Assembly (NCBI GenBank): GCA_905171695.1
Contig: LR991653.1
Location: forward strand, 1,338,150-1,402,149
Length of the DNA: 64,000 nt
Source: Candidatus Methanoperedenaceae archaeon GB37
GTDB lineage: Archaea > Halobacteriota > Methanosarcinia > Methanosarcinales > EX4572-44
Direction of reading: 5' to 3'
Shown here: positions 5,034-27,326 of the stretch, in pieces
Numbering within the stretch: position 1 is the first letter of the stretch
Layout of the letters: every line of letters begins with the position of its first letter
The notes under the pieces: generated by a model
The model's database searches: none
Seen by the model: only the letters and a program-made list of their open reading frames with translations
Told to the model about the DNA's origin: nothing
Program-made: the position numbers and the translations under genes

Positions 5034-5610
5034 CATTTTATGCTGTGTTGAACAATTGGCTGAGAAGCTTCCTGGAATAAACCTTCAATAGTTTTTGCTC
5101 TGGATGTTTCTCCAAATGCTCTTTTAACTCCAGAAAAGAAGGCTTCAGATGCTCATCTCTTGCCATGTCTATACTTATCTCTCCAGGCTTCATATCCGAG
5201 TCTCTCCATTTCTCTCACCGTCTTGGTTCTTGATGGAGATCCCCTTGCTTTTGTGGATGAGTTCTTTCTCGTCTTTATTACTGCCTTGATCTTCTCTTCA
5301 TCAAGAAAGGTTGAAGTTATCTTACTATCATATACCTCCATTGCCATTGATACTCTTCTTAGTCTCTCTCACCAGCGCTATTAAGCATCTTTCCATCACC
5401 GGTTCTTTCATCCTCCAAAGCCAAAAGCCTCTCTTTCTTTTCACATCAACAAGCGATTGTGAACCTTGATCCAACCTTTATGTACTCTCCATTTATGTCT
5501 GATCCACTCTCCTCTACCTGTAACACACCAGATGAACCAATAGCAATAACGACATTCTCCAGATTTTCTATAGTATTCGGACAGTTTTCTTATAAAACTT
5601 TCTATCTGCC
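5034..5610 (-). mobile_element. Truncated IS5/IS4-type IS copy (fragment B), C-terminal transposase part only
   Basis: Starts with GCATTTTA+TGCTGTGTTGAACAATT, the same as the left end of the copy at 6767. ORF 5153-5347(-) ...NSSTKARGSPSRTKTVREMERLGYEAWRDKYRHGKR parallels the C-terminus of the 7007-7729 transposase. It is cut at 5610 by another IS end. Confidence 0.7.
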
Positions 5611-6766
5611 TGCTGTGTTGACCAAATGAGAAGATTTATTCGTATTCTTAATAATAAAATTATAAAAATAAGTAAATTTTATGGTATTGGATTTATTATC
5701 ACTATCAGGAGATTATTAACTCAAGAAATGAAACATATAAGATGGGGTAAAAAATTCGAAGATAAGAGAGACTGGAAGTAATATAACGGGAAGTAATATA
5801 ACGGGAAGTAATATAACGGGAAGTAATATAACGAGACGTTGGTCAGACGTGGAGAACTCTACCTCTCATTCGGTTTTCTGGATAGTTGGGATGATGAACT
5901 TGCTATAGATGAATGCGGGCAAAAGAGGAGCACCTTTCTCATACCCAGATCAGTTCGTTGCTTTTATGGGATTTATATATTCGATATTTCATATTCCCTA
6001 CAGGCAAATGGAAGGATTCTTGAGGAAACTTTCAGGTTTAGTTTCCCGAGACATAACAGCGGATTACACGACTTTATTCAAACGTATATCAAAAATGAAC
6101 TTTGATCTCCCAGAGACGATCTCGGAAGAAGAAGACGATATAGTAATAGCCGTAGATCTATCTGGTGTAAAGGTTACAAATCGTGGAGAGTGGATGAGAG
6201 AAAAATGGAGAGTGTACATGGGAGGGATCAAGGTACATATAGCAGTAGATATCAGCACTAAAGAGACTCTGGCTATTGAAGTAACAGATGAGACCGTGTA
6301 ACTGAGAGTGAAAAACTCGATAATCTTATAGATCAGGGAGGGGAGAACATAATATAGGAGGTAAGAAAATAAAACGTGTTTTGGGAGACGGTTGTCATGA
6401 CGATCGAGATTGCTTCAATACCCTGGATAAAAAGAAGATAGAATCTGGAATAAAAACACGAATTAATCCAAGTACGAGGCCGAGAAGACCGCCATACAGA
6501 GCTAAACGTGTTAGAGAAAAGAGAGAACTTGGTGACTACAAAGGTTGACGAGGCAAATATGAATATGGCAAACACCGGATCGTAGAAAGCGTACTCTCCG
6601 CTGTTAAAAGAATATTTGGCGAGATAGTGAGAACGACCAGCATCGAGGGAATCTTCAAAGAAGCAAAAATGAAGTTTAATTTGCTACAATATATTGTTGA
6701 ACTACGTATAGATTTAAAGAGAGTAAGAGAGGAAGTCAGAAAACTAAAGATTTATTCAACACAGCA
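5611..6766 (+). mobile_element. Degraded IS5/IS4-type IS copy (copy C) inserted into fragment B
   Basis: Ends are TGCTGTGTTGACCAAAT (5611) and TTATTCAACACAGCA (6752-6766). The interior encodes broken pieces homologous to the 7007-7729 transposase (LVRRGELYLSFGFLDSWDDEL; GKRGAPFSYPDQFVAFMGFIYSIFHIPYRQMEGFLRKLS...IVIAVDLSGVKVTNRGEWMREKW) with stops and frameshifts. Confidence 0.7.
5774..5833 (+). repeat. Perfect 4 x 15-bp tandem repeat (GGAAGTAATATAACG) inside the degraded transposase 5' region
   Basis: Read directly: units at 5774-5788, 5789-5803, 5804-5818 and 5819-5833. The unit corresponds to the W-K-E-Y-N codons of the intact homologue (KRNWKEYNEKLVRRGEL) but carries a TAA. Confidence 0.95.
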
Positions 6767-7784
6767 GCATTTTATGCTGTGTTGAACAATTAGCTGGATG
6801 GGGTATATCTTCAGGTAATTGTTTCTCTGAGAATGTAAGTTTAAACACTTATGAGCATGTTGTAGAAGATGAATTTCATCTTTACTTCTTGAAATAAAGC
6901 TTCTGTAGATCTTGCTCTGCATGTCTCTCCAAATACTCTTTTAACACCAGAGAAGAAACTCTCTGTTGTCCATCTGCAGCCATACCTGTATTTATCTTTC
7001 CATCTTTCATGACCTAACTCTTTTGGGTTCTCTTACTCTCTTAGCTCTGGATGGAGAGCCTCTTGACTTAGTTGAAGAGTTACTTCTTATCTTGATCACT
7101 GGTTCTACATTATTTTCAGCAAGATAATTGAAATTCTCTCTGCTATCATAACCTCCATCACCATATACCCTACTTATCTCTCCACCTCTTCCTTTAATTT
7201 GCTTTACCAGAGGTTTTAACATCTTTCCATCACCTGTTCTTTCATCTGTTATCTTTAAGGCTAAGAGTTTCCTTGTTTTAACGTCTATAGCAATATGAAC
7301 CTTAATCCAACCCTTTCTCGTTTTCCATTTATGTCTGATCCACTCTCCTCTATTCGTTATCTTCATACCAGACGAATCTATTGCAACTACAAGATCTTCT
7401 CCAAGATTACTAGAGAGTTCAAAGTCTAGTTTCCTCAACCTCTTACAAACAGTGGAATAATCAGCTACCTTTAACTCAGGTATATATTCTGATAATTTCC
7501 TCAAAAATCCTTCCATTTGTCTTAATGGAAGGAAAGCTACATGCAAGAAAGCTAGAAAACACATAAAGGTTCGAGGAAACCTGAAAGGTCTGCCAACCTT
7601 CCCCTCATTCATCCTATTTAATTCTTCATCCCAGTTCTCAAGGAAATCCAATGAGATATAGAGTTCTCCCCTCCGCACAAGTTTTTCATTATATTCCTTC
7701 CAATTTCTCTTACTCTGCATCCCAATCATCCCTCCTGTAAATGAGAAATACAGGAAGGAAACTTAAGAGTTATTCAACACAGCA
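6767..7784 (-). mobile_element. IS5/IS4-type IS copy (copy A), most complete, about 1 kb
   Basis: Terminal inverted repeats with core TGCTGTGTTGAA (6775-6786) and TTCAACACAGCA (7773-7784). It contains the transposase ORF at 7007-7729. Confidence 0.8.
6841..7729 (-). pseudogene. DDE transposase (IS4/IS5 superfamily) with a 1-nt frameshift near its C-terminus
   Basis: The 240-aa ORF reads MIGMQSKRNWKEYNEKLVRRGELYISLDFLENW...LPLRQMEGFLRKL...VVAIDSSGMKITNRGEWIRHKW...YGDGGYDS and ends ...KRVRS*. The conserved tail GHERWKDKYRYGCRWTTESFFSGVKRVFGE...YNMLISV continues in the +1 frame to 6841. Confidence 0.75.
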
Positions 7785-7787
7785 CTC

Positions 7788-8000
7788 AAGACTATAAAAG
7801 TAATAGTTGAAAAGCATCCTGAAGGATATGTGGCGTATCCTTTGGGGCTAAAAGGTGTAGTGGTTGGTGAAGGTAATACCTACGAGGAGGCACTTGCGGA
7901 TGTGAAGTCAGCTATCAAATTTCACATGGAAACCTTTGGAAGAGAGGTTTTTGAAAGTGAAGAGATTATGGAAACCTTTGTTGTAGAAGTGGCAGTGTAA
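7788..8000 (+). pseudogene. hicB: HicB-like antitoxin (UPF0150 type) that lost its start codon to the IS insertion
   Basis: Reads KTIKVIVEKHPEGYVAYPLGLKGVVVGEGNTYEEALADVKSAIKFHMETFG... with stop at 7998-8000. There is no in-frame start between the IS end (7784) and this sequence. Confidence 0.6.
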
Positions 8001-8218
8001 TGAAGTTCCCAAAAGATGCCCATAGGTGAAAGGTCATAAAAACATTCGAAAATCTCGGATTTAGAATAGCTAGAATGGGAGAACATATCTCAATGGTGAG
8101 AGAAAATCCAGATGGGACTAAAACTCCTTTAACCATGCCTAACCATGATAGGATAAAAGGTTCGACGCTGAGAGTTATTTGCAGGCAATCAGGTATAAAA
8201 GCGGGAGGAGTTTTTTAA
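8000..8218 (+). pseudogene. hicA: HicA-like mRNA-interferase toxin with an in-frame TGA at codon 10
   Basis: The ATG at 8000 overlaps the hicB stop (TAATG). It reads MKFPKDAHR-TGA(8027-8029)-KVIKTFENLGFRIARMGEHISMVRENPDGTKTPLTMPNHDRIKGSTLRVICRQSGIKAGGVF, which follows the HicA/YcfA pattern. Confidence 0.65.
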
Positions 8219-8236
8219 AAGCTTATGAAGAAACAT

Positions 8237-8277
8237 GAGTAACTTCGCCTAGGCTCGGAACGTTAGCAGAAATTCGG
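8237..8277 (+). repeat. Short-form cassette-junction site (E3): ...GAGTAAC...CGGAAC|GTTAGCAG-AAATTCGG
   Basis: Lies directly after hicA. GTTAGCAG (8262-8269) is the exact reverse complement of CTGCTAAC at 8836-8843. It shares GTTnnnnGAAATTC with the sites at 8852, 15006(-) and 27266. Confidence 0.55.
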
Positions 8278-8793: not shown

Positions 8794-8867
8794 CTCTGCG
8801 ACAACTTCGTTACCTTGCCCTCACTTCGTTCAGGTCTGCTAACCCGAATACGTTGTCCGAAATTCGG
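8794..8867 (+). repeat. Cassette-junction site (E2)
   Basis: CTCTGCGACAACTTCGTTACCTTGCCCTCACTTCG...CTGCTAAC-CCGAATAC-GTTGTCC-GAAATTCGG. The first 35 nt are homologous to 24661-24695 (CTCTGCGGAC...CCTTGCCTCGCCTTCGG). Confidence 0.55.
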
Positions 8868-9110: not shown

Positions 9111-10004
9111 TTACCTGCTTACCTGCGCGCCTGCGCCTATCATGGTTTTATACTCGATTGAGTCTATGTCATGTTCTCTGAAGGCTTGCTTCATCGCATT
9201 GGCTATTCTATCGCGCTGGTTGAGCCTTGAGACTGCGATCATGGTTGGTCCTGAGCCGCTGATCGTAACACCGAGTGCGCCAGCGGCAGTAGCAGCCTTC
9301 TTCACGTCCATGTACCCTGGTATGAACTGTGAGCGTAGTTCCTCTATCACGTGATTCTCCATACCGAGTCCGATCAATTCGGGATCGCTTCTGAGCATGC
9401 CAGCGGTCATGAAAGCAGCGCTTCCGGCGTTGAAGACGAAATCGCTCATCTTGATCTTTAGAGGGAGGATCTTGCGCGCCTTTTTCGTGTTGACCTTCAC
9501 GAAGGGAGAGACCGCGGTTATCCCGATGTTCTTGGGTTTTATGCTGACAATCCTTCTCTCATGCACGATATTGAATCCTCCGAAGAGGGCTGCTGCCACG
9601 TTATCTGCATGTGGAATGCCCGCCGATACTCGCTCTCCTTCTGCTGCTATCCAGACGAGGTCCTCTCTTGAATGACCTGTGTTGTGGAGCACGTTTATCC
9701 CGAGTGCTGTTGCAGCGGCAGGTGCTGCACTGCTGCCAAGCCCGCTTGATATTGGGATCTCTGCGTGAATGGTTATCTGCACAGGATGACCCATCGCCTC
9801 TGCAACGATCCCTGCAGTATTCTCTTCAGGACTTGTCGGCACCTTCTCGCCATAAGTTCCGGTAACATCTATCGAGGTCTCATCACTGCTGCTCTCTGAG
9901 ACTTCAACGATGAGCCTTGGCTTGTCCAGTGCTATTCCGAAGATGTCAAAGCCTGCGCCGAGATTCGCACTCGTTGCGGGTGCTCTGACCTTCACAGATC
10001 TCAT
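9111..10004 (-). CDS. thrB: Homoserine kinase
   Basis: From the internal ATG at 10004: MRSVKVRAPATSANLGAGFDIFGIAL...PISSGLGSSAAPAAATA... (GHMP kinase motif), 297 aa. The upstream 168 codons of the 465-aa track ORF are low-complexity and overlap the divergent HIT gene. Confidence 0.85.
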   Translation of the reverse strand: MRSVKVRAPATSANLGAGFDIFGIALDKPRLIVEVSESSSDETSIDVTGTYGEKVPTSPEENTAGIVAEAMGHPVQITIHAEIPISSGLGSSAAPAAATALGINVLHNTGHSREDLVWIAAEGERVSAGIPHADNVAAALFGGFNIVHERRIVSIKPKNIGITAVSPFVKVNTKKARKILPLKIKMSDFVFNAGSAAFMTAGMLRSDPELIGLGMENHVIEELRSQFIPGYMDVKKAATAAGALGVTISGSGPTMIAVSRLNQRDRIANAMKQAFREHDIDSIEYKTMIGAGAQVSR

Positions 10005-10061
10005 TCTCAGCAAAAGAGATATATTCCGAGTATTAATAGATGGTGGTGTGGAGAGGATCGA

Positions 10062-10487
10062 TTGATGGAGTCTGAGTGTATATTCTGCAGGATAGTTGAT
10101 GGAGAGGTTCCGTCTGTGCGTGTCTATGAGGATGGTGAGCATCTTGCTTTTCTTGATGCAAATCCACGTTCCGAGGGGCATGTGCTGGCGATTCCGAAGG
10201 AGCATATAACAACTCTTGACGAGCTTGGAGACGAAGAGATAGCAAAGCTCTTTGTCGTGGTAAAACGGGTTGCAGAAGCCCTGAAGGAGAGAATGGGGGC
10301 AGAGGGATACAACGTTGTGAGCAACAACGGAGAGATCGCGGGTCAGGTGATACCTCACGTGCATATCCATGTAGTGCCGCGATACGCTGCTCAGGAGAGC
10401 AGGGCTGGCTTTGAGTCGGTATTGCCGGTCGACAGAAAAGCAAAGAGTCGGCTTGAAGAGGTTGGAGCGCGATTGAAGATCCAGTAG
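10062..10487 (+). CDS. HIT-family (histidine triad) nucleotide hydrolase
   Basis: 141 aa with CIFCRIVDGEVPS...ANPRSEGHVLAIPKEH...IPHVHIHVVPR (HxHxHxx triad). Confidence 0.9.
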   Translation: MMESECIFCRIVDGEVPSVRVYEDGEHLAFLDANPRSEGHVLAIPKEHITTLDELGDEEIAKLFVVVKRVAEALKERMGAEGYNVVSNNGEIAGQVIPHVHIHVVPRYAAQESRAGFESVLPVDRKAKSRLEEVGARLKIQ

Positions 10488-10889
10488 GGATGAAGAATTT
10501 GACTCCATGGTTTGCAGAGATCAGCATAGTTATACAAACCTGAACACAATATGGTCAGGAGATATTACGCCGAGTACGGTCTGCTAAGCACTGTGTGACG
10601 TTATTTGTAATGATCATCTCTAAATTTCCTACTTCTTTTTTCATAGCCTATCATCTGTAAACTCAAATCACACACAAATGTAATATATAAATAAAACGAT
10701 TTTTAGTTGTTAAATGGCACATATTGGCTTATACGATGCTGTAATTGAAGTCAAATTATGCAAGAATAATTTTTCGGCTCAGAGTAACGTTTGTATACCG
10801 AGGACATTATTCACGTGCAAAATATGTACGATAATATATTTAAAAAATAATTACTTAATAAAAGTTTCAATTAAAAAATTTAGAAATAT

Positions 10890-11105: not shown

Positions 11106-11794
11106 ATAGGATTATAAATATGGGAGACTATCTTTTATTTATGCTGAGGGTAAGGGAAATTGTTGAAGAGTTGAAGGTGTTTGAGAGGAATAAGGTTCCT
11201 TTTGAGGTTAAGGTTCTCGGTGTTGCAACCTATATTCAGACGTCTTCTGTGAGAAGGACTGCTAGAATTCTCTCTGAGCTTCATCCAGTCTCTAAAACCT
11301 CTGTTTGGAACTGGATACGGAAGTTTGAAGAGAAATTGCCTGTTGTATCAGAGAAGAAGAGAAGATACTCTATAGCATTGGACGAAACAGTTGTTAAATC
11401 AAATAAAAAGGCGTACTATGTCTATTCTGCGGTAGATGTTGAGAAGAACGAGTTAATTCTGATGAGAGTTTATACAAACAGAAATTATCTTGTTTCAAGG
11501 TCTTTTCTCAAAGAAGTGCTAAAGTTCTGCGAGAACAAGCCAAGATTCATCGTTGATAAAGCTCCCTGGCTTATAGATGCACTGAAAAGCCTGGATCTGG
11601 AATTTGAGCATCAAACCTTTCGGAGAGAGAAACCTGGTTGAATCGGTGTTTTCTTCGCTAAAACATAGAATAAAGATATTCTTTTTCTCAATTAGCTCTT
11701 TTAACCCTGTTAAAAACTGGAATTTCTTCTGTAAGCTCTTTATGCTTTATTATAATCGGTTGAGGTGGTGTTTATATTAAGTGGACACGTCCCC
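11092..11794 (+). mobile_element. IS6-family-like insertion sequence (about 0.7 kb)
   Basis: 14-bp terminal inverted repeats GGGGACCCGTCCAC (11092-11105) and GTGGACACGTCCCC (11781-11794), 12/14 complementary. It carries a single transposase gene. Confidence 0.75.
11120..11780 (+). pseudogene. IS6-type DDE transposase with a frameshift
   Basis: The 173-aa ORF reads ...SIALDETVVKSNKKAYYVYSAVDVEKNELILMRVYTNRN...IVDKAPWLIDALKSLDLEFEHQTF and then stops (RREKPG*). The conserved continuation GERNLVESVFSSLKHRIKIFF...YYNRLRWCLY* is in the +1 frame, ending at 11778-11780. Confidence 0.7.
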
Positions 11795-13037: not shown

Positions 13038-13177
13038 AGTATTCCTCCGTTTTGCTTAATTCAATTTTATCCATCGCGTGTAGAGATTAGGTGAAGGGTG
13101 TTAAAAAAACTTTCCGTTTCATCTTTAAAACCAATTCCCTCTCTTATTGAAAATTTGGGTCTTCGCCTCGCGAAGCC

Positions 13178-13195
13178 GTTTAACCCCCGTTATGC
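13178..13195 (-). repeat. Short-form junction site (E6): GCATAAC-GGGG-GTTAAAC (minus-strand reading)
   Basis: The plus strand reads GTTTAAC-CCCC-GTTATGC. It is adjacent to the perfect hairpin CTTCGC-CTC-GCGAAG (13161-13175). Confidence 0.4.
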
Positions 13196-13315
13196 CGGGT
13201 TGCGTAGCAATCTGGTTCATGTTTCTTCCTCTCGTTTTCTTCGTTAAACGAATCCAAGCCCTGTTTCTTTTGGTGGTTCAGGTCTCCTTTCCTCCGGGAA
13301 GGAGAATTGGAAATT

Positions 13316-13394
13316 TTGGCTAACGTTCTGCGGATAAAAGAAGTTGCCGAAGGCAATTTGGACGAAGCGTAGCGAAGCCTTTTATTAGATGATG
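13316..13394 (-). repeat. Long-form attC-like structured repeat (E5), decayed copy
   Basis: About 90% identical to 14323-14408 over TAACGTTyTGCGGATAAAAGAAGTTGCCGAAGGCAATTTGGrCGAAGCGyAGCGAA. Relative to that copy it lacks 7 nt (CCGCTGT), which removes half of one stem arm. Confidence 0.7.
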
Positions 13395-13410
13395 TGCGGA
13401 GTCCATATTA

Positions 13411-14259
13411 TCAATAGCCTCCAAAGAATCTTATAAAATCAATAAACCAATGAAATGTAATAGCAGTCTCTAAATTTCGTTTATATTGTAAAAATGCCAT
13501 CGGCAATCCAAATAAAAAACTGGTAGATATTAGCATAAATAGAGCACCTGGTATATTATGTATCCATAATTCTGGAAAGTGAATTAAACTGTGTGGAACT
13601 ATACCAAAGAAAAAACTAATTATAACTGAGTATTTCCTCTCAACCTTCCCTTCCAATAAATAAAATATGAAATTCATAGTAAAAAACCTAAATATAATCT
13701 CTTCAGAGATTCCTGGTGCTAAAGCTAAAAAACCTGCACTAAATATGTTTGTCCATTCAGCCTCACCTAAAGTCAGTCTAAAATAGATGTAATTTATTAA
13801 TGCAAAAGGTAATGCAACTATAAGACCTATTAAAAATGACTTAAATAATGATTTATACTTCTGTAATATGAGTAATGACTTGTTTCTATTACTTCCACCC
13901 GATAATAAACTACCTCCAAGAAATGCAACAAATGTTACAATAGAGTTAATTACTACTGTGAATATGTCTGTTTGTTGAATAAAACTAAAATAACTTATAC
14001 CCGATAACAATATTCCAAGCGCAATATATCTTAAACTCAACCACTTAAATTTCTTATAAATTACTATTAAAGCAAGACAAAATATATAATATTCTGTCCA
14101 TGTCCAGGCTCTATATGTAAACCCAGAATCCTGTTTACTTAGTGTATGGACAATTGAAATTATGTATATTAAAACAAATATGGTGAACAAAAGTATGGTG
14201 TATATAAAATATTTCTTGAAATTATTATTCATATCTTTATTTAAAACAACGCTTCTCAT
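13411..14259 (-). CDS. CPBP-family intramembrane glutamic endopeptidase (CAAX protease/Abi-like)
   Basis: 282 aa, polytopic. It has the three CPBP motifs: GISEEIIFRFF (EExxxR), FGIVPHSLIH (FxxxH) and ITFHWFIDF (HxxxD/N). Confidence 0.75.
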   Translation of the reverse strand: MRSVVLNKDMNNNFKKYFIYTILLFTIFVLIYIISIVHTLSKQDSGFTYRAWTWTEYYIFCLALIVIYKKFKWLSLRYIALGILLSGISYFSFIQQTDIFTVVINSIVTFVAFLGGSLLSGGSNRNKSLLILQKYKSLFKSFLIGLIVALPFALINYIYFRLTLGEAEWTNIFSAGFLALAPGISEEIIFRFFTMNFIFYLLEGKVERKYSVIISFFFGIVPHSLIHFPELWIHNIPGALFMLISTSFLFGLPMAFLQYKRNLETAITFHWFIDFIRFFGGY

Positions 14260-14322
14260 TATATCTTGATTCCTCTCTTTCTTTTTCTTTAATCAATATT
14301 CCAATTACCATCACATTAGCAT

Positions 14323-14408
14323 GTCATCTAACGTTTTGCGGATAAAAGAAGTTGCCGAAGGCAATTTGGGCGAAGCGCAGCGAAATCTTTTATCCGCTGT
14401 TATATGAC
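14323..14408 (-). repeat. Long-form attC-like structured repeat (E4)
   Basis: Minus-strand reading: GTCATATAAC-A-GCGGATAAAAG-(38 nt incl. TTGCCTTCGGCAA hairpin)-CTTTTATCCGC-AAAAC-GTTAGATGAC. It has a perfect 11-bp stem pair, and the outer boxes are 9/10 complementary. Confidence 0.8.
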
Positions 14409-14462
14409 CCGAAGGGTAAGGTTGCAAAGCAACCATAGAGTACCGAACCCCGTCTAATATTT

Positions 14463-14927
14463 TCATTTTGGCTTACTATACCACTCTTTTTTTCCTTTAA
14501 GGAATTCATCCACTCCTTTTTTCTTAATTCTCCTTAGATTTCTTATATGGGCATCCCCGTGATTCGGCTTTAAAAAGTCCAGCTTCTCGCATGTTTCAAA
14601 TTCATCGCACTCCCAGCACCCCTCAAATCCTCTCTTCTGGCAACATTTCCTTATCTTGCAGAAAGGCGGACCTCCACCACCTCTGCAAGCGTTCTTGCAT
14701 CGCATTTTTACTAATGCACCCAGCACTTCATAGCATTCACTGTAGTTCTTGTATGCGGCAAAGAACGGCATCGTAGCCAGGTATTCCGCTGTCTTGTCAA
14801 ATTTTGTCTCTCTTAATTCTTTTCTGAGATCCCTTGCCAAATCTGCCGCCTTTTGCCTGTATCCAATACAATCCCCACAATAAAGACCACAGTATGCGAT
14901 TAGGTCCTTGTATTCTTTATTATTCAT
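14463..14927 (-). CDS. Cysteine-rich protein (DUF3795-like)
   Basis: 154 aa with YCGLYCGDCIGY near the N-terminus and a C-terminal Cys cluster (CKNACRGGGGPPFCKIRKCCQKRGFEGCWECDEFETC). GGAGGT lies 8 nt upstream of the ATG. Confidence 0.55.
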   Translation of the reverse strand: MNNKEYKDLIAYCGLYCGDCIGYRQKAADLARDLRKELRETKFDKTAEYLATMPFFAAYKNYSECYEVLGALVKMRCKNACRGGGGPPFCKIRKCCQKRGFEGCWECDEFETCEKLDFLKPNHGDAHIRNLRRIKKKGVDEFLKGKKEWYSKPK

Positions 14928-14997
14928 TTCTTGACCTCCATAAATGACACTTTGAATCTCTTTAATATTTCTATTTCCAAAGGCAGGGTTCGGAATT

Positions 14998-15018
14998 TCA
15001 TATAACTATGTTATATCA
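14998..15018. repeat. Palindromic minimal site TCATATAAC-TAT-GTTATATCA at the boundary of the cassette region
   Basis: Read directly. It overlaps the stop codon (15011-15013) of the CcdA/DsbD-like gene. Its minus-strand half GTTATATGA-AATTCCG matches the conserved GTTnnnnGAAATTC motif. Confidence 0.7.
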
Positions 15019-16363
15019 CTCCGAGTTGGATCAGTGCGGCGAGTGCGAAGAGCGTTATCCCTGTTATGATGCGGAGGGCGACACGCCACTCTTCTCTGAA
15101 CGATTCAACCTTCTCTGGGGCAAGTCCCGTGGCGATGGCTGCGCCTATGAGAAGCACTGGGAGCATGACTCCGAGGTTGTAGATTGCAAGGTATAACATG
15201 GCACTTGATTTGCCGCTCTTTATCATCTCGAGTATTGCAAGGTATATGGCGCCGACACACGGGGCTTTTATAAGTGAGAAGAGGCTTCCGAGTATGAAGG
15301 ATGCTGGGAGGCTTGCACCTTCTATTGCTCGTTCGGTCATTTTTGTGAAGATTTTTGGTGTGCGGAAGGTCGATCTCTTGTTCTTCTCGGATGTGTGGAT
15401 GTGATATGCGTCGTATACCTGCCAGAGCCCGAGTGCTACGATTAAGAGAACCAAGAATGTCTGGACCCCTTCCTGCATCTCACTGCCGATGACTTCGAGA
15501 AGACCGATTCCGAATATCAGATAGGTGGTGAAGATCCCAGAGCTGAAGGCAATCACAATGTAGAGAACGTTTCTTCTCTTTCCAGTGGATGCAAGGGTGA
15601 TACTTGCTATGAATGCAATTATTGCAAATAGGCAGGGGTTCAATCCAGCAAATAGTCCCATGAGTAAGATTGAAGGTGGTGAAAGGTCTGGTCTAACGTT
15701 TATCGTCAGGTCTTCTGATGCAAAGGTATGGTTTGAATCGTTCAGATAGAGGATTGTTCTTGAGAGGAGCCGTCTGCCATACCCTGATTTCTCTACTCTG
15801 ACTTGGTAGGTGTACGAGGCTTTATCATGGGGCTTGAGTCGTGCGTTCCACGAGGTCTCTCCGCCGATGAGTGTTGCGTTCGAAGTGAGGCGTTCGGTTG
15901 CGTTGATCTCTGCACTCCTGTTGCCTGTGTTTGTGAGAGTGATTGTGACGTTGATGAGATCCCCAGGTGCAGTCGATGTCCTGTCTGACCTCTTCTCGAT
16001 CGTTATAACAGGTTTTCCTCCTAAGGATTCTTCGATCTCTCTAAGAAGGAGTCTCTTGAGGAGTGTGGTGTTGCCGTTGTAGTCTTCATAGCTAATGAGC
16101 GTTGTTTCATCTATCACGATGCTTGGGATCTCGAAGACTCCATAGCTCTTTGCCTTCAGGATTCCTTCGTCGTTCTTGAGGTTATAGATCTCGTAGTGTA
16201 CTTTTCCCTCGTATCTGTAAACGACCTCTTCAACGACTGGGCGTGCGTCCTCGCATCTTGAGCAGAGTGGGTCGTAGAAGTATTTCACGCTGATGGGAGA
16301 CCTGGCGCTGGCTGGTATTGAGGGGAGGAGTAGAAGTAAGAGGAGGAGTGGCAAGACTCTCAT
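15011..16363 (-). CDS. Thiol:disulfide transfer membrane protein (signal peptide + thioredoxin-like CxxC domain + beta-sandwich + CcdA/DsbD transmembrane domain)
   Basis: 450 aa with MRVLPLLLLLLLLPSIPASA; DPLCSRCEDARP; and a C-terminal polytopic region with GLNPCLFAIIAF and IKAPCVGAIYLAIL (the two conserved Cys of DsbD/CcdA). Confidence 0.7.
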   Translation of the reverse strand: MRVLPLLLLLLLLPSIPASARSPISVKYFYDPLCSRCEDARPVVEEVVYRYEGKVHYEIYNLKNDEGILKAKSYGVFEIPSIVIDETTLISYEDYNGNTTLLKRLLLREIEESLGGKPVITIEKRSDRTSTAPGDLINVTITLTNTGNRSAEINATERLTSNATLIGGETSWNARLKPHDKASYTYQVRVEKSGYGRRLLSRTILYLNDSNHTFASEDLTINVRPDLSPPSILLMGLFAGLNPCLFAIIAFIASITLASTGKRRNVLYIVIAFSSGIFTTYLIFGIGLLEVIGSEMQEGVQTFLVLLIVALGLWQVYDAYHIHTSEKNKRSTFRTPKIFTKMTERAIEGASLPASFILGSLFSLIKAPCVGAIYLAILEMIKSGKSSAMLYLAIYNLGVMLPVLLIGAAIATGLAPEKVESFREEWRVALRIITGITLFALAALIQLGVI

Positions 16364-17437: not shown

Positions 17438-18523
17438 ATGGAAATTAAAATTAAGGCACTTACGCCCATCTGGACTGGTGGAGTGGAAGGCAAACCAGAC
17501 AGATTGCATACGACAAGCATCATTGGCAGCATGCGTTGGTGGTACGAGGTCGTTGTTAGGGGCCTTGGAGGGTATGCGTGTGATCCGTCGAGCGAAAAGA
17601 GATGTGAATTGTCGGGTAAGGAAAAGACACGTGAGGAAAGGCTTGCTAAGTTGTGCCCGGCATGTTATCTGTTTGGATGTGGGGGATGGAAAAGAAGATT
17701 TCGGTTAGAGGTTCAGAGTAATACCTCTGTTCCTTTTCAATTGGCCACTTTGGAAAGTAAGAACAAATTCAATCACTGGTGGCTTTCGCAGATTTTTGAA
17801 GATTCGCGAGGAACGAATTTACCATTTGGAGAGATATCATTGTCTTTAAATGGGGATGATGACGTGATTGATCAGGTTAAAGCTCTACTCTCTATCATGG
17901 TAAATATTGGTGGAATCGGTGCAAAAACTCAATATGGGTATGGTCAATTCGATTGGGACGATAAAATAGAATTAAAAAATGCGATTAACACAATTCGCCA
18001 GTTCTTATCAGGAAATATTTTTAAAAGCGGTTCAAACAAAGATAAATGGTATTCACTGACTAATTTTTGGTATTACAAATTGTCCATAACGTCTGACAAT
18101 GGGTTGGTGAACAAATTTAAAAATGCAAACTTGATTGGCAATGGAAATATGCCCTCGGATTATTTGCCTGTTTCGTTCGACATTCGCTATAAAATGCCAA
18201 GTTCTGGGGATGGTACTGGATTAAGGAGTGCATATTATTCATTTTGTAGGCATTCCATGTCAAAAGAAGACGCAAAACAAAAAACAAGATCATTATTTGG
18301 AACACTTGAAAATGATAAAATCGGAAGCAGGATTTTTGTAAGTCATCTTTTCAGGAGGAGAAACATTGATAATAATCATCATCTGAAAGTTTGGGGATTT
18401 ACTGACGATTCGGTTGGAAAAGTTGTTGGTGATGAATTAAAGAACATTTTTGGATTGGATAAACCCCCTTCTATAGTAACTGGAAAAGAGCTTATCAACT
18501 ACTCAAGGGGTGAAGTCCAATGA
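17438..18523 (+). CDS. cmr1: Type III RAMP protein, Cmr1-like (Cas7 group)
   Basis: 361 aa with IKALTPIWTGGVEGKPDRLHTTSIIGSMRWWYEVVVRGLGG, a Cys cluster ending CPACYLFGCGGW, and the Gly-rich GGIGAKTQYGYGQF. Confidence 0.75.
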   Translation: MEIKIKALTPIWTGGVEGKPDRLHTTSIIGSMRWWYEVVVRGLGGYACDPSSEKRCELSGKEKTREERLAKLCPACYLFGCGGWKRRFRLEVQSNTSVPFQLATLESKNKFNHWWLSQIFEDSRGTNLPFGEISLSLNGDDDVIDQVKALLSIMVNIGGIGAKTQYGYGQFDWDDKIELKNAINTIRQFLSGNIFKSGSNKDKWYSLTNFWYYKLSITSDNGLVNKFKNANLIGNGNMPSDYLPVSFDIRYKMPSSGDGTGLRSAYYSFCRHSMSKEDAKQKTRSLFGTLENDKIGSRIFVSHLFRRRNIDNNHHLKVWGFTDDSVGKVVGDELKNIFGLDKPPSIVTGKELINYSRGEVQ

Positions 18524-19767
18524 ATTATGATTATTGCTCGCATCTCACGAAGGAACAAAACCAAACCATTGAAAAAATATTGCGTCTAGAAAATGAAATA
18601 AAACAGGATAAACAGATAAAACAACAAAAAGAAACCGAAGTCGGAAGGCTACGAAAAGAATTATTATCACAAAACCCGCATTTGTTCTATCACGTTATAG
18701 CAGTGTTGAATAATTCATTAAAAGATAATTTACGCTCCACATGGCAAACGGGAAATATCAATATAAAATTGAACAATTACCATATCGATGAAATTATATC
18801 TCCATCAATCAACATATCCGTACTTCCAAAATACTCTTTTCTAATCCAATTCAAATTTACACTCGAAAAACCTTATATCTCACGTGATGAACAGGATTTT
18901 TACATCATAGACAATCCTATCCGCAAAGACAGGGTCTTTGGTCTTCCCTATATTACTCCCTCCTCATGGAAGGGAAGCCTACGGGCCGCACTGTGGCAAA
19001 ATGGACATAAAGAAGACGATGTCCAGATCAATCGAATATTTGGAAATAAACGAGGGATAGAAGAGCATACTGAACTCAAAGCCGGGCGATTGCATCTGTT
19101 TCCCACATTCTTTGATAGAATCGGTCTTGAGATAATAAATCCTCATAACAGGGAGAGACGGATTGTTGAGTATCCGATTCGTATCGAGGCCGTTCCGGGT
19201 GGTACATCGGGTATATTCACCCTTTTATATGTTCCATTCGATTTGATTGGGAAGAATGAAAAGGAGTTTAATAATCAGATCTCAAAAGATGTATGGATAA
19301 TTGCGCAGGGATTGAAAGCAATGTTCAGAGATTATGGCTTCGGTGCAAAGACTTCCAGTGGATTCGGTATTGCAAAACCAGAATTTACCGAAGGAAAACT
19401 CGTTCTGAAGGTCGAGGGCATAGACATCAACCAAAAAGAGGAGGCGACCATCCAAGAACCGGAGGACGGGTTTAAAAAATATCTTAATAGCGATGGGATT
19501 GTGAAAGAGGAGTTTAAAGGGAGTGGCGACGCTGGCCTTCTCAGCAACAATGAGTATAGCGAAACGGGTGAAAAATACGGCGGCGGCAGTCTTACCGAGT
19601 TCAAAAAGTTCAGGCGATGGTATGGCCGTTATGGTGAGAAATGGCAACAACAGTTAAAGAATTCTCATGCCGAATGGCCTATCTGGTGGTTTGAAAGCTT
19701 TGACGAGCTGGTGAATGTTGCGACGGAAATAAAAGAATCACTACTTTCCAAGGAGGCTGCGCGATGA
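18520..19767 (+). CDS. cmr6: Type III RAMP protein, Cmr6-like (Cas7 group) with N- and C-terminal extensions
   Basis: 415 aa with FGLPYITPSSWKGSLRAALW...INRIFG and the G-rich loop YGFGAKTSSGFG. It overlaps its neighbours by 4 nt at both ends (operon coupling). Confidence 0.7.
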   Translation: MNYDYCSHLTKEQNQTIEKILRLENEIKQDKQIKQQKETEVGRLRKELLSQNPHLFYHVIAVLNNSLKDNLRSTWQTGNINIKLNNYHIDEIISPSINISVLPKYSFLIQFKFTLEKPYISRDEQDFYIIDNPIRKDRVFGLPYITPSSWKGSLRAALWQNGHKEDDVQINRIFGNKRGIEEHTELKAGRLHLFPTFFDRIGLEIINPHNRERRIVEYPIRIEAVPGGTSGIFTLLYVPFDLIGKNEKEFNNQISKDVWIIAQGLKAMFRDYGFGAKTSSGFGIAKPEFTEGKLVLKVEGIDINQKEEATIQEPEDGFKKYLNSDGIVKEEFKGSGDAGLLSNNEYSETGEKYGGGSLTEFKKFRRWYGRYGEKWQQQLKNSHAEWPIWWFESFDELVNVATEIKESLLSKEAAR

Positions 19768-22451
19768 CTCCTGACCTTTCAGTTCTGAAGGAAAATAAGG
19801 AAGTCCTCCTCGCAGAGATGGCCGCCTGGCTGCATGATATGGGGAAGTGTAGCGATGAGATGATAGAAAAACAGGCTTTGGATTGTCCATCATCACCCAC
19901 ATTTCAATCCAATAGTGCATATAAAACCGCTTTTTCTTATCTACTGAATGGTAATAATCATAATATTAATTTGTTAGGCGAAACAGTAACCTTTAAAGAC
20001 CTCGTTGAAAAGGGGATGCCTAGGGCAATAAAGGATAGTAGTATTCAATTATCGCTAATTAAATACTTGGGTCGGTGTCATGCTGCTGCGCACATCGAAA
20101 AAGAAGGACAAGCAGATAAAAAGCAGACGGTGAATGATACAAGATTGAGTTCTCCCTTTGGAAATGAAACGGAAGTATTAGTACGTCTTACAGATAAGTT
20201 GAAAGCTTTGCCCTTTGATAAAATAGTCAACAGGGAGGAATTCCTGCCTATTTTGAAAGAAACATTCAAAAACGCACCTGGAGACACGGAAAGACCAATA
20301 AACGAGGTTGATCTGTGGAGCTGGTCCAGCATAGTCGCTGCTCTTTACAAATCTGCACTGGCAGGGGCACTTCTTGGTAACAAACCCAAACCAAATGATT
20401 TGAAGTGGCGGTTGTTGGCCATAAGAATTGATTCCGATAGGATTCTTGGCGATGTGGCGAAGATTCCAGTATTGCTTGCCAGAAAGAAATGGATTACCGA
20501 AGGGTTAGATAATGTTAAAGAACTGATTGAAGAAGAATATCCTCTTGGAAACGAGGTTTACAGGGATGAGAGCGGAAGTATTTTCGTTGTGCCGGACATC
20601 CCGAGTCTATTGAAACTTAAAGAAAATGCGGATAGTTCTGAAAAGACCTTGGAAGATTTAATCTCCAAAAAGTTAGGATTTGAAGGAGAGATTGTTGTAA
20701 CGCCTTCGTTATCTGAACACTGGTGGGGTCAGAATCCTAGTGGAAGACCTGATCCTACGAAAGATAAGATCCCACCGATTGGAGAGATCTTTCAGGAAAA
20801 ACCATATTCACCACCGGACCCAGAAAAGGTTAAGGAATGGTGGCGGGATGTGGACAATACAGAGATTTGCACGATTTCCTGGCTGAGACCTCAGGGAAAA
20901 AAAGAAGGAGCTTTGAGAAAATCTTCAGATTACTGGGCAAAAAAGGTTCGGGGACGATCTGAAGAATGGTATAAGGACAGGAGCAAAACTATATGGATAG
21001 ATGAGGTGGCAGATAAAAACGGCAGAATATGTCTCATCACCGGCAAACTGGACATATCAGGATGGTTAAAACCTAACGGTCATGTGAGGACCCTGCTTGT
21101 TAAGGCTCCAGATGGTAATTCCAGTCAAGTCATTCAGAAAACCCCTTCATTCGCTCGCCTCAGACGTGTCTGGGAAACAACAAAGACGTTCTGGGAGGAA
21201 GTCGAAGAAGATTTTGAGAAAACTGTCGGCAGGGTAGAAAAAAGATTGGTTATTACTGGCTCTGTAGATGATCTATCCAAAAATAAGCTTTTTAAAAACA
21301 ATGTGTATGAGATAGATATCGAAAAAACAAGGGTAAGTGTTTTCTATTCTGGAAATGGTCGGTTTATTGTCGTTGAAAATCTTGAACGATTGGCCCGTAA
21401 GATGGGTTATTCAAAGAACGATGATGACTATTTAGTGTACATTCAACAAGAATTAAACGATAAAGAAGTCAGAATATATAATCCAGACGGTAATAATAGA
21501 AATAAGCACATTGTACTAATAAAAATGTTGAGGGTCGAGCCGATAGAGGATAATTTCATTCCTGTGATCCCTATCTTCTCTGAGCCCAGTCTATTCATGG
21601 CAATCGTACCTGCCAACAAGGCTATGGACATCGTAAAAAACATCAATAAAAAATATGAAATAGAAATGGATAAAGTACGAAACCGTCTCCCTCTTAATAT
21701 CGGATTGACCTTTGCCAGATCTCATACGCCGATAATGGCTTTAATGGAGTCGGGGTGGAAGATGATAAACGCATCTCTAAAGGAGGAAATCAGGATACTC
21801 AATGCAGACTCTGAAAAATGCGATGATAAATATATCTTAAATTTCGAGAACGGGATAACCTGGCGTGTTCAGGGGAAAATGGGGGATGGAATAACAGAAG
21901 ATGTTTGGTATCCGTATTTTTATGTGGATGGAAATCCGAACGATAGAAATATGGTTTTTAAAGGTCCGAAGGGGTGGCTAGTGCATGTATCAGAATTAAA
22001 AAAAGGGGATGCCGTCAAAATCACACCTTCCTCTTTTGATTTCGAGTTTCTGGATTCTGCATCCCGGAGGTTTGAGATATCTTATGATGAAACTGGAAAA
22101 CGGCGTGATAATACAAAATCTAACCGTCCATATTTGATTGATAAATTTGATGACTTCGAGCGTATCTGGAAAGAGATGACAAATAATTTAGCAGCCACTC
22201 AAATAAAGAACGTCATAGGCCTTATTGAAACCAAACGGGAGGAATGGAATGTTTCCAGAGATGATGAAACATTCAAACAATTCGTCAATGATGTTCTCCG
22301 CAATGCCAACTGGAAGCATGGCACCCCTCAAAACCTCGATGAGATCACAAACATAGCAGTAAGTGGAGAGTTAAAAGATATTATCGAACTTTACATGAAT
22401 ATACTGAAGGCAAAAGGAGATTATATGAACGATACAGAGGTGAATACATGA
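19764..22451 (+). CDS. cas10: Cas10 large subunit with N-terminal HD domain and no GGDD cyclase motif
   Basis: 895 aa with HD motif AAWLHDMGK at residues 20-28. The conserved post-palm segment is RLPLNIGLTFARSHTPI. Where GGDD is expected about 40 aa upstream, the sequence reads SEPSLFMAIVPA. No GGDD occurs anywhere in the protein. Confidence 0.8.
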   Translation: MTPDLSVLKENKEVLLAEMAAWLHDMGKCSDEMIEKQALDCPSSPTFQSNSAYKTAFSYLLNGNNHNINLLGETVTFKDLVEKGMPRAIKDSSIQLSLIKYLGRCHAAAHIEKEGQADKKQTVNDTRLSSPFGNETEVLVRLTDKLKALPFDKIVNREEFLPILKETFKNAPGDTERPINEVDLWSWSSIVAALYKSALAGALLGNKPKPNDLKWRLLAIRIDSDRILGDVAKIPVLLARKKWITEGLDNVKELIEEEYPLGNEVYRDESGSIFVVPDIPSLLKLKENADSSEKTLEDLISKKLGFEGEIVVTPSLSEHWWGQNPSGRPDPTKDKIPPIGEIFQEKPYSPPDPEKVKEWWRDVDNTEICTISWLRPQGKKEGALRKSSDYWAKKVRGRSEEWYKDRSKTIWIDEVADKNGRICLITGKLDISGWLKPNGHVRTLLVKAPDGNSSQVIQKTPSFARLRRVWETTKTFWEEVEEDFEKTVGRVEKRLVITGSVDDLSKNKLFKNNVYEIDIEKTRVSVFYSGNGRFIVVENLERLARKMGYSKNDDDYLVYIQQELNDKEVRIYNPDGNNRNKHIVLIKMLRVEPIEDNFIPVIPIFSEPSLFMAIVPANKAMDIVKNINKKYEIEMDKVRNRLPLNIGLTFARSHTPIMALMESGWKMINASLKEEIRILNADSEKCDDKYILNFENGITWRVQGKMGDGITEDVWYPYFYVDGNPNDRNMVFKGPKGWLVHVSELKKGDAVKITPSSFDFEFLDSASRRFEISYDETGKRRDNTKSNRPYLIDKFDDFERIWKEMTNNLAATQIKNVIGLIETKREEWNVSRDDETFKQFVNDVLRNANWKHGTPQNLDEITNIAVSGELKDIIELYMNILKAKGDYMNDTEVNT

Positions 22452-23407
22452 ACAGTGAAAAGAAAAAGCTGTACACCCACCAGCGGTTTGTAATGTTCGC
22501 TCTTGACCCGATTCATATTGGGGCTGGTGGATACCGTCTTGGTCGGGTTGACAACAGTATTGTAAGAGAAATGGGGACGAATTTACCGAAGATTCCGGGT
22601 ACAAGCCTTGCAGGTGCCGCGCGAAGTTATGCTTCGATGAGATATGGGAAGCCTGAAGCCGCAGGCCAGCATAAACGGTTTATAGGTGAAAAAGAGAAGT
22701 GCCCGATAATCTACACCTTTGGAACCGCAACGGAAACCGGTGGTGAGGCAGGCAAGGTCAGCTTTGGAGATGCAAGGATTTTATTCTTCCCGGTGCCTTC
22801 AGTGGCGGGTCCTGTATGGGTCACCACAAAGGAGATTCTTGAGGAAGTTGGGTTCACCGTTAATGGTGGCGATGTCGGTGAGGAAACTGTGCTGTCCAAT
22901 CTTTCCTGGAGTAAAGAGCAAATAAACCTCGGCTGGTTATCGTTGAATCATAACTGGGGCTTAACCATTTCTCCACCCGAAGAAATCAAAGACAAAAAGG
23001 GATGGAAAGCAATAGAAAACAGGATTGTCCTCATTTCTCAGAAATTGTTTTCAGAGGTTGTCAACAGCAATTTGGAGGTGCGAACATCGGTTGCCATAAA
23101 CCCCGAGACCGGAGCTGCTGAAGACGGTGCCCTGTTCACATATGAAGCATTACCTCGAGCTACCTGGTTATGGCATGATATCATCGAGGATGATTACAAA
23201 CAAAGTTTCCCGAAAACGGAAAATCAATTCAAAGATAACAAGGAAAACAGTGGGGATGCTCTCGGGGAGATATGGGAGCGACCGTTGGATGTTGTGAAAG
23301 CCGGTTTAAGATTAATCGAATACCTTGGAATCGGTGGCATGGGGACACGCGGTTTTGGGAGGATGAAAAACATCTGTGATTGGGAGGTTGGCAGTAATGA
23401 ATCTTGA
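22448..23407 (+). CDS. cmr4: Cmr4-like Cas7 backbone subunit
   Basis: 319 aa with ALDPIHIGAGGYRLGRVDNSIVRE...LPKIPGTSLAGAARSYA and the C-terminal GIGGMGTRGFGRM glycine-rich loop. Confidence 0.8.
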   Translation: MNSEKKKLYTHQRFVMFALDPIHIGAGGYRLGRVDNSIVREMGTNLPKIPGTSLAGAARSYASMRYGKPEAAGQHKRFIGEKEKCPIIYTFGTATETGGEAGKVSFGDARILFFPVPSVAGPVWVTTKEILEEVGFTVNGGDVGEETVLSNLSWSKEQINLGWLSLNHNWGLTISPPEEIKDKKGWKAIENRIVLISQKLFSEVVNSNLEVRTSVAINPETGAAEDGALFTYEALPRATWLWHDIIEDDYKQSFPKTENQFKDNKENSGDALGEIWERPLDVVKAGLRLIEYLGIGGMGTRGFGRMKNICDWEVGSNES

Positions 23408-23762
23408 CCTTGAAGCTACGAGAACCTCCCAGGAAATAATAACGAAGACGGGAGGAAATAGATCCAGTGAGGTTGAAAACCTGATTACTAAGACGCTAGG
23501 GGTTCTTCAGGAGAACGGCATTTATGCATGCACACTCTATCTGAACTCCAGAACGAGTGAAGCGGAGAAGAAGATTGGCCCTGTCATCCACGAGGAACTT
23601 CTTAAAATGACGAAACGACTTGTTAAGACACCAATAAAAAACGATGATTACGAATATCTTACGGACGAAATCTGTTCAGACATTGACCTACTTATACTAA
23701 CAAAACAGCTCTGGGAGCAGACATTGACCTATGCTAGATACGGGGCGAAAGCAAGGACGTGA
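23397..23762 (+). CDS. cmr5: Cmr5-like small subunit (Cas11)
   Basis: About 121 aa and predicted helical (..VENLITKTLGVLQENGIYACTLYLNSR..). It lies between cmr4 and cmr3. The ATG at 23397 overlaps the cmr4 stop region; the track ORF starts at 23376. Confidence 0.6.
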   Translation: MNLDLEATRTSQEIITKTGGNRSSEVENLITKTLGVLQENGIYACTLYLNSRTSEAEKKIGPVIHEELLKMTKRLVKTPIKNDDYEYLTDEICSDIDLLILTKQLWEQTLTYARYGAKART

Positions 23763-23766
23763 TATT

Positions 23767-24660: not shown

Positions 24661-24803
24661 CTCTGCGGACACTCCGTGTCCTTGCCTCGCCTTCGGCTCG
24701 GTCATATAACATGCGGGTATGCGGTTCGGGCTTACGCCCTCACCCAAATTGCTCCGCTCCCGTTGGTCGCTACGCAACTTCGCATACCCGCAAACCGTTA
24801 TAC
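24661..24803 (+). repeat. Long-form attC-like structured repeat (E1) immediately 3' of the type III-C operon
   Basis: CTCTGCGGACACTCCGTGTCCTTGCCTCGCCTTCGGCTCG-GTCATATAAC-AT-GCGGGTATGCG-(58 nt incl. CACCCAAATTGC)-CGCATACCCGC-AAACC-GTTATAC. It has the same architecture and conserved blocks as 14323-14408(-), but the 11-bp stems carry different, mutually compensating sequences. Confidence 0.8.
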
Positions 24804-24824
24804 CAACAATAAGTTTACAGAACC

Positions 24825-24943: not shown

Positions 24944-25049
24944 GCGAGGGTAACCAAGTCGGCCAAAGGTGCAGGACTTAAGTGGTACTGGTGGTATCGG
25001 AGTTATCCTGTCTCGAAGGAGTTCATGGGTTCAAATCCCATCCCTCGCA
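24944..25049 (+). tRNA. tRNA-Leu (anticodon UAA) with a 22-nt intron after position 37
   Basis: Acceptor GCGAGGG/CCCTCGC; anticodon stem CAGGA (24972-24976)/TCCTG (25006-25010); loop CTTAAG + intron TGGTACTGGTGGTATCGGAGTT (24983-25004) + A; long variable arm; T arm ATGGG-TTCAAAT-CCCAT. No CCA is encoded. Confidence 0.8.
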
Positions 25050-25094
25050 TCAAAAACAGAAAATTTTCTGAATTGTGATGGATGTGGTCTCTTG

Positions 25095-27223: not shown

Positions 27224-27326
27224 AAGAACAACCAGACCACATGCTACCCAATGCAGAAAACCCGTGTTAAGCGAAATTGCCTCAGCAAAAGTAGGTTCTA
27301 TGAAGTCTTAGAGAAGGGTACAAAAT

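Follow-up and report, generated by a model that had tools for sequence, protein, structure and literature searches.

A palindromic junction between a DsbD/CcdA-like gene and integron-type cassettes in a Methanoperedenaceae chromosome: probable insertion at a pseudo-attI site

The locus

The window, by which the whole 64-kb stretch of chromosome analysed here is meant, is archaeal and encodes TBP. Near position 15,000 it contains a gene for a DsbD/CcdA-like protein with thioredoxin and DsbD transmembrane domains, which is 100% identical to a Candidatus Methanoperedenaceae protein and has many homologues in Methanoperedens, and this gene is followed by GTTATATGAAATT... and by gene cassettes closed by hairpin-forming repeats (Table 1). 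The original prediction had placed the edge of a cassette region at 14998–15018, and the breakpoint between host and cassette homology is indeed located there; the accompanying change from GC-normal to AT-rich DNA was likewise confirmed, GC content being 0.49 at 15001–16000 and 0.37 at 14001–15000. Loci in other genomes and metagenomes are cited by L numbers.

Table 1. Coordinates of the junction, the cassettes and their attC sites in the window, and of associated integrases in other genomes
Feature	Position	Strand	Basis or remark
DsbD/CcdA-like gene, 450 aa	15011..16363	-	Pfam DsbD_TM
Palindromic junction	14998..15018	-	homology breakpoint and match to GATATRA-N3/4-GTT
Host box GATATAA	15017->15011	-	part of junction 14998..15018
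Spacer CATA	15010->15007	-	between GATATAA box and GTT
Putative crossover G, followed by TT	15006; TT at 15005-15004	-	part of junction
Cassette 1: leader, DUF3795 gene, 3' module of small hairpins, attC	14332..15005	-	homology to L068
Cassette 1 leader with GGAGGT ribosome-binding site	15005->14928	-	shared with L068
DUF3795 ORF, 154 aa	14927->14463	-	Pfam
attC of cassette 1, intact	14314..14418	-	97.8 bits, E=5e-24; hairpin z=-3.09
Cassette 2, Rce1/CPBP-like membrane protease	13324..14331	-	Pfam Rce1-like
Rce1/CPBP-like ORF of cassette 2	14259->13411	-	Pfam
attC of cassette 2, left stem arm degenerate, R' GTTAGCC	13306..13410	-	71.4 bits, E=9e-17
Probable decayed attC	13073..13208	-	10.4 bits, E=6.4, weak
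R' box and leader GTTAGCAGAAATTCGG; of the attC before it, only the 3' quarter is present	8262..8277	+	
R' box and leader GTTGTCCGAAATTCGG; before it a cassette 3' module and R'', without attC core	8852..8867	+	
Third attC, same family	24691..24815	+	56.5 bits, E=1e-12
R'-like box and leader GTTAAGCGAAATTGCC, after the HerA gene, without attC core	27266..27281	+	
XerA-like integrase, L101	4538-5587	-	followed by attI and array
XerA-like integrase, L060	920-1690	+	followed by attI and array
XerA-like integrase, L122	54-1115		followed by attI and array
XerA-like integrase, L123	6001-7068		followed by attI and array
XerA-like integrase, L124	6001-7053		followed by attI and array

The cassettes and their attC sites

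The first cassette (14321–14918, comprising its attC and the DUF3795 gene) has a close relative in an Aerophobetes single-cell genome (L068), with 76% DNA identity over 606 nt and 73% identity between the DUF3795 protein and its counterpart, which provides direct sequence evidence of cassette sharing across domains. The leader of this cassette, about 80 nt in length (positions 1051–970 on the minus strand in L068), is conserved between one archaeal and one bacterial cassette with different genes, and it reads GTTATATGAAATTCCGAAyCCyGCCTTTGG...AAATATTAAA...GGAGGT...ATG; base-pairing links the first 25 nt of the leader to the 3' module of the cassette before it.

Self-complementary ends are expected of an integron cassette, in which the remainder of the R' site travels with the 5' end (TTRRRY...), so that this end can pair with the R'' of the same cassette. 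In cassette 1 the two ends are complementary at 9/9 positions, with a 10-bp outer stem in addition, such that GTTATATGA pairs with TCATATAAC and CCGAACCCTG with CGGGGTTCGG, and joining them again at G|TT gives one composite hairpin (-31 kcal/mol, z=-5.55). Cassette 2 starts with GTTAGATGA, which matches its end TCATCTAAT at 8/9 positions; the cassette that begins at 8262 and carries a 138-aa ORF ends in TCTGCTAAC (8835–8843), a 9/9 complement of its start; and the first cassette of L060 reaches 10/10. A 9/9 match between cassette start and end was nevertheless dropped as proof by itself, because shuffled sequences make such pairs common: 29 inverted pairs of GTT...AAC 9-mers within 3.5 kb were observed in comparison with about 16 expected from shuffles, so that 9-mer pairing alone proves nothing.

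The attC of cassette 1 consists of R'' TCATATAAC, a stem formed by GCGGATAAAAGA and TCTTTTATCCGC, and R' GTTAGAT. The repeat unit that it shares with the attC of cassette 2 extends over 66 nt (13320–13385 and 14328–14393), is 92% identical between the two copies, forms a hairpin with a 12-bp stem and is flanked by ...TAAC and GTTA.... Clusters of at least two attC sites less than 4 kb apart that lack an integrase are classified as CALINs, and the locus falls into this class, as the covariance model built in this work detects two attC sites within that distance and no integrase accompanies them.

The attC family and its distribution

The repeat belongs to a family of considerable spread. A 19-mer of its core, GGCAACTTCTTTTATCCGC, occurs in more than 119 stretches among the matches listed from species-representative genomes, and these matches (loci L003–L121) represent more than 100 species of many bacterial phyla together with at least 30 archaeal genomes. 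Exact preservation of a 19-mer across domains is unusually strong DNA conservation for a recombination site. Several of the matched loci carry copies 0.7–1.2 kb apart, arrays of this attC with a spacing of 0.7–1.4 kb occur in many genomes, and a covariance model (R1), built from an alignment of 94 copies and applied both to the window and to other genomes, recovered same-strand arrays of 3–6 attC sites in the latter. No Rfam family corresponds to the repeat, a limited literature search returned no description of this attC type (such absence being no proof of novelty), and the core is absent from the attC and primer sequences used in the assays of PMC9668308, as far as its supplements give them as text.

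The consensus of the 94 copies, RYYYAAC-A-GCGGATAAAAGG-[variable hairpin]-CAAATTGCCTTCGGCAACTT-CTTTTATCCGC-AAAAC-GTTRRRY-GAAAT, has the layout of an integron attC, R''/L''...L'/R' with AAC/GTT cores. An attC is expected to carry an inverse core RYYYAAC (R'') at one end and a core GTTRRRY (R') at the other; ATATAAC...GTTAGAT occupies these positions in the window, and TAAC and GTTA are present in at least 90% of the 94 copies. Since RNAalifold found no consensus structure on the gapped alignment, a hand-drawn structure of four helices was tested instead, in which 86.8% of cells are paired over the 94 copies, compared with 28–50% after sliding of the partners. Of the 7 pairs of the variable hairpin, 6 have compensatory changes, and the inner stem is compensated in the copy at 24.7 kb and in L060; taken together with the hairpin score of the intact copy in the window (z=-3.09) this is the single-strand folding that an attC should display. 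Extrahelical bases in the L box, which mark the recombined strand of an attC, were not found, the inner stem having 11–12 contiguous pairs (95% paired) with no conserved bulge; the sole asymmetry of the site is its spacer, which is A on one side and AAAAC on the other.

The inner-stem box CGGATAAAAG resembles the box CGGATATAA of the attI sites described below, and the conservation of the stem sequence may be explained by this likeness, as a binding site for protein.

The junction and the host gene

The junction reads TCATATAAC-TAT-GTTATATCA on the plus strand; on the minus strand its core is GTGATATAAC-ATA-GTTATATGA, or TGATATAAC-ATA-GTTATATGA when taken as a feature, and the wider context is ...CTC GGA GTG ATA TAA C ATA GTTATATGAAATTCCGAACCCTGCCTTTGG.... 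It had been described as a perfect palindrome, which holds for the 7-bp arms ATATAAC and GTTATAT around a 3-nt spacer and fails for the 9-bp arms, in which there is one C/C mismatch. As claimed, no stem-loop intervenes, and the TAA stop codon of the minus-strand DsbD-like ORF (15013..15011) lies within the right arm, so that the last codons of that gene, GTG ATA TAA, make up the left arm of the palindrome when read on the coding strand. Perfect 7-bp inverted repeats with a 3-nt spacer are ordinary in this DNA (6 in the window, 4.6 in simulated sequence), and 7-bp palindromes centred on AAC-N3-GTT are rare (2 in the window, 0.04 in simulated sequence).

Could the palindrome serve the DsbD-like gene as a terminator or regulatory hairpin? 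Its overlap with the stop codon and its capacity to fold into a 7-bp hairpin (-5 kcal/mol) speak for this, but the fold is no better than those of shuffled sequences (z=-1.27), no T-run comes after the site and the right arm is missing from the orthologues of the gene, all of which makes such a role highly improbable.

Two cassette-free orthologues delimit the host side. The first (L001, 77% identity) ends ...GGA GTA ATA TGA CCCTGTGC and is followed by core genes, and the second (L002, 56% identity) ends ...ATA ATA TAA CAGGCTTT; the counterpart of the left arm is GTAATATGAC in the former and ATAATATAAC in the latter, and represents the conserved 3' end of the host gene. Accordingly, host homology runs through ATAT(A/G)AC and no further, the homology between the DsbD-like gene and its orthologues ending at 15013. 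On the other side, the window from G(15006)TT onwards matches leaders that stand after complete attC sites in L068 (Aerophobus), L105 (Actinomycetota), L035 (Patescibacteria) and L022, which bears out the proposal that the first cassette starts with GTTATATGA on the minus strand. The site is a genuine junction of recombination, placed to within about 3 nt: the breakpoint is located at CATA|GTT, with the sequence to its left aligning with L001 and L002 and that to its right with cassette leaders. The further proposal that a common motif follows several GTT boxes of the window was retained in a weaker form: GAAATTCCG is exact only at 14991 and 62000 and approximate elsewhere, the boxes at 8262 and 8852 carrying GAAATTCGG and that at 27266 carrying GAAATTGCC.

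The same DsbD–cassette junction is present in a second metagenome (L127, Ga0180301_10062774, 2239–2418) with several SNPs, two of them in the leader, which argues that the insertion is fixed and is not an artefact of assembly. A metagenome search for an allele with an empty site returned only the known orthologue and the strain variant L127, and a scan of species genomes with the DsbD-like protein gave no relative. The comparison with empty orthologous sites that had been suggested therefore gave a mixed outcome, in that the cassette-free orthologues lack the GTT half and close relatives provided no empty allele.

A second possibility contained in the original prediction is that of a junction collapsed after cassette loss. 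It can be put as a collapsed attC, an ordinary site from which the inner hairpin was deleted, for example by slippage or cassette loss, so that R''-ATA-R' was left behind. The covariance model does align the R''/R' stem to the junction, with the inner 65 positions deleted, and R''/R' pairs without a core are also found at 8835–8860 and in L043. Yet the score of this alignment (11.9 bits, E=2.5) is not significant, being at chance level, and the supposed R'' is composed of the last Ile codon, the TAA stop and the following C of the DsbD-like gene, a left arm that is ATATGAC or ATATAAC in the cassette-free orthologues as well. A collapsed junction is very unlikely for this reason, its left arm being conserved host coding sequence.

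The attI motif and the associated integrase

Junctions in other genomes at which an R' box and leader occur without a preceding attC core were collected and found to share (C)G-GATAT(A/G)A-N3/4-GTTRRRY, with the extended motif CG-GATATRA-N3/4-GTTA occurring at about 18 loci in all. The first cassette downstream of an integrase is attached through ...TTCG-GATATRA-N3/4-GTTRRRY in L101, L060, L087, L122, L123 and L124. In L101 and L060 the junction lies directly downstream of the tyrosine recombinase gene and on the same strand, after several repeated or palindromic boxes of the type GATATRxCGAAC, and the frameshifted integrase copy of L087 shows the integrase–attI arrangement too. The loci L122, L123 and L124 are further recombinase homologues picked solely for their long contigs, and all three (3/3) display this arrangement followed by attC sites positive with the model; in L124 another attC is found just upstream of the integrase gene. 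The integrase fragments of L044 and L094 are followed by a related region with GATAAAC/TATAAAC boxes. Judged from this recurrent arrangement, the GATATRA-N3/4-GTT junction downstream of the integrase is the attI of the lineage.

The integrase itself is of a XerA type. The L101 protein passes the NCBIfam model NF040815 (XerA_Arch; "site-specific tyrosine recombinase/integron integrase") and remains below the cut-off of the integron integrase model TIGR02249, which it matches in two pieces. Its best structure match is VchIntIA (PDB 2a3v), also in two pieces, with residues 171–230 skipped against 20 in L101, while XerA structures align with it end to end. Of 111 close homologues, 88 have a spacing of 61 aa between the KDR and LRH motifs and one more has 62, compared with about 100 in IntI1, and the integrases beside this attC type thus do not possess the IntI-specific domain (the I2 helix region), approximately 40 residues being lacking. 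The family of L101-type integrases is very large, with at least 7,900 matches at E<=1e-30, and a limited literature search found no description of an integrase without the IntI-specific domain beside attC arrays.

In canonical integrons, the IntI-specific domain reads the extrahelical bases of the attC site, and the accepted view holds that folded attC sites require it in order to recombine. Judging from the genomes compared here, the lineage departs from canonical integrons in both tested features, the IntI-specific domain and the extrahelical attC bases, neither of which is present, and an attC stem of contiguous pairs would be in keeping with an enzyme that lacks the domain for reading such bases.

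Origin of the junction

The window site, GATATAA-CATA-GTTATAT, fits the terminal part of this attI, GATATRA-N3/4-GTT, and by our own calculation the probability of a GATATAA box at the family distance in a random flank is about 7e-4. The fit is confined to that terminal part: the upstream boxes TATATxCGAAC...GTTCG of L060, L087, L101, L122 and L123 are absent from the window site, as is the CG ahead of GATATRA in true attI sites. No tyrosine recombinase was detected in the 64-kb window by tblastn with the L101 integrase (E<=1e-3), no Phage_integrase domain was found in Pfam scans of 50 window ORFs, and no intI adjoins the array.

As an alternative, the boundary might have arisen through something that has nothing to do with integrons, for instance IS-mediated deletion or illegitimate recombination, the palindrome being a coincidence with no role in recombination. 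This would be in keeping with the abundance of IS remnants (5033–7784 and 11120–11641) and of short palindromes and 9-mer GTT/AAC pairs. Against this, the cassette sequence sets in precisely where R' has its canonical G|TT crossover, the GATATAA box on the host side stands at the family-specific distance (p~7e-4) and only 0.04 AAC-N3-GTT-centred 7-bp palindromes are expected per window, and a coincidence of this kind is therefore considered quite unlikely. The site is to be classed among the cassette junctions of integrons.

The original prediction had also regarded the site as attI-like and possibly as the primary attachment site, and these two parts fared differently. The layout is indeed that of the terminal part of an attI. 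A primary attI of a resident integron, at which cassettes were routinely captured by an integrase that is encoded elsewhere or was deleted, would account for the match to the attI-end motif GATATRA-N4-GTT, for the at least three cassettes that come after the site on the same strand and for the stability of the junction in two samples, and action of an integrase in trans is possible, as pointed out in PMC9668308 for clusters that have none of their own. However, true attI sites of the lineage lie directly downstream of the integrase and have extra palindromic and direct-repeat boxes that are absent here, no integrase is found within 64 kb, and the left half of the site is coding sequence conserved in cassette-free orthologues; a primary attI is consequently unlikely.

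The junction was probably produced by integrase-mediated insertion of cassettes at a pseudo-attI, i.e. a secondary site, leaving an integrase-less cluster. The fit to the attI end, the missing upstream boxes and CG, the host coding origin of GATATAAC and the probability of about 7e-4 together lead to this reading. The position of the junction, the nature of its cassette and host sides and the match to the attI-end motif are shown by the sequences; the choice of the site by a recombinase, the exchange at G|TT and a present or past activity of the site are what we infer. In the proposed mechanism, a circular cassette or multi-cassette circle would have been inserted by a tyrosine recombinase of the XerA-like 'integron integrase' family, whose gene would be located outside the window or lost. 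The enzyme would have used the folded attC of the cassette, with R'' TCATATAAC paired with R' GTTATATGA, while the double-stranded partner would have been a chance attI look-alike at the end of the DsbD-like gene, consisting of GATATAA, four bases and G|TT. After strand exchange at G|TT, the host DNA would end with the G and the cassette DNA would begin with TT, and the sequence before insertion would have been ...GTGATATAACATAG|TT.... Such a mechanism would also explain the palindrome, since the host box and the R' box of the cassette would be inverted copies of one recombinase half-site. The resulting layout would be that of an attI 'simple site', and the junction could have accepted more cassettes. 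As the cassettes are on the strand of the host gene, read-through transcription is possible.

Relation to known systems

Class 1 integrons offer the closest precedent for the geometry of the site: attI1 ends ...GCCCTAAAAC-AAA-G|TTAGGC, and in their attI simple site inverted half-sites face each other, which is the same logic as that of the window palindrome. The likeness extends to the half-sites flanking a G|TT crossover, to the AAC about 3 nt before GTT and, when attI x attC junctions are considered, to cassettes that begin at TT and lie on one strand. The window differs in lacking an adjacent integrase gene and accessory direct-repeat boxes, and in having a left half-site, GATATAA, that is the coding end of a host gene. 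Insertion at secondary sites is known from the aadB cassette in RSF1010/pIE723, which occurred at GWT-type sites; there, as in the window, a cassette is precisely joined at G|TT to non-integron DNA of partial resemblance with no integrase nearby, whereas the window has several cassettes, an archaeal chromosome as host and a site that resembles an attI box and not GWT alone.

The locus resembles the CALINs of archaeal integrons (Ghaly et al. 2022, PMC9668308) in having at least two attC sites within 4 kb and no integrase in an archaeal host, and the dataset of that study lists a Methanoperedens genome with 4 attC sites. Archaeal attI sites were reported there downstream of intI, as in the present lineage. 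The archaeal IntIs of the same study carry the IntI-specific domain, in contrast to the integrases linked to this attC type, which lack about 40 residues of it, and the contiguous inner stem without extrahelical bases is another difference. With XerA/dif (PDB 5hxy, 4a8e) the window shares a short inverted repeat, and the associated integrases score as XerA-type (NF040815); unlike a dif site, the window site bounds mobile cassettes with folded hairpins and AAC/GTT cores.

The locus represents an integron-type cassette array, resolved to the base pair, that is anchored to an ordinary gene of an archaeal chromosome (Methanoperedenaceae). On a broader scale, the attC type, the attI motif and an integrase without the IntI-specific domain may constitute a separate integron lineage. 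We put forward only tentatively that this lineage is a distinct and very widespread one shared by Bacteria and Archaea, characterized by a XerA-like integrase lacking that domain, an attC with a near-invariant core and no extrahelical bases, and the attI CG-GATATRA-N3/4-G|TT. If so, its cassettes could be inserted at look-alike sites in ordinary genes and would be moved between archaeal and bacterial chromosomes, surveys that require the IntI-specific domain would record its elements only as integrase-less clusters, and the need for this domain in the recombination of folded attC sites could be tested with a natural counter-example.

Other cassette remnants and neighbouring elements

A low-GC stretch of the window (4.5–15.0 kb) starts past tRNA-Arg(CCG) at 4444–4520 and contains IS5-like and IS6-like remnants, small ORFs and a GC-normal GHMP kinase gene (9111–10508, minus strand, GC 0.51) in the middle of this accessory DNA. 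The possibility of an island targeted to the tRNA, with the 3' end of tRNA-Arg repeated at its border, was rejected, since a second copy of that 3' end is absent and a classical tRNA-integrated island is thus unsupported. The IS5-like copies, nested and duplicated with ends TGCTGTGTTGAACAA..., and a truncated IS6/IS240-like transposase occupy 5033–7784 and 11120–11641; these elements interrupt the cassette region and probably inverted parts of it, and owing to them and to rearrangements the distal end of the array cannot be traced. The only other perfect AAC-N3-GTT palindrome of the window, TTTTAAC-CCT-GTTAAAA (11699–11715), lies just past the IS6-like fragment. Upstream of the box at 8262, a cassette remnant (7785–8261) with 74–78% DNA identity to cassettes of Firestonebacteria (L085) and Chloroflexota (L088) closes in no more than the last quarter of an attC (8241–8261).

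The third attC, whose stem is fully compensated (GCGGGTATGCG/CGCATACCCGC), stands with a 3' hairpin module directly past the final RAMP gene in a type III CRISPR-Cas operon (17438–24660), and a 221-aa ORF and a HerA helicase gene (24969–27223) come after it; the defence genes near this attC may be cassette-borne. Within the 3' part of the RAMP ORF at 23731–24660 there are four perfect tandem copies (24454–24549) of a 24-nt unit, GGTGGAAAAATACCGCACCCTATA, which would encode an 8-residue repeat. Further along the window, a 2,672-aa ORF (41855–49873, plus strand) adjoins genes for surface proteins of the DUF11/CARDB type.
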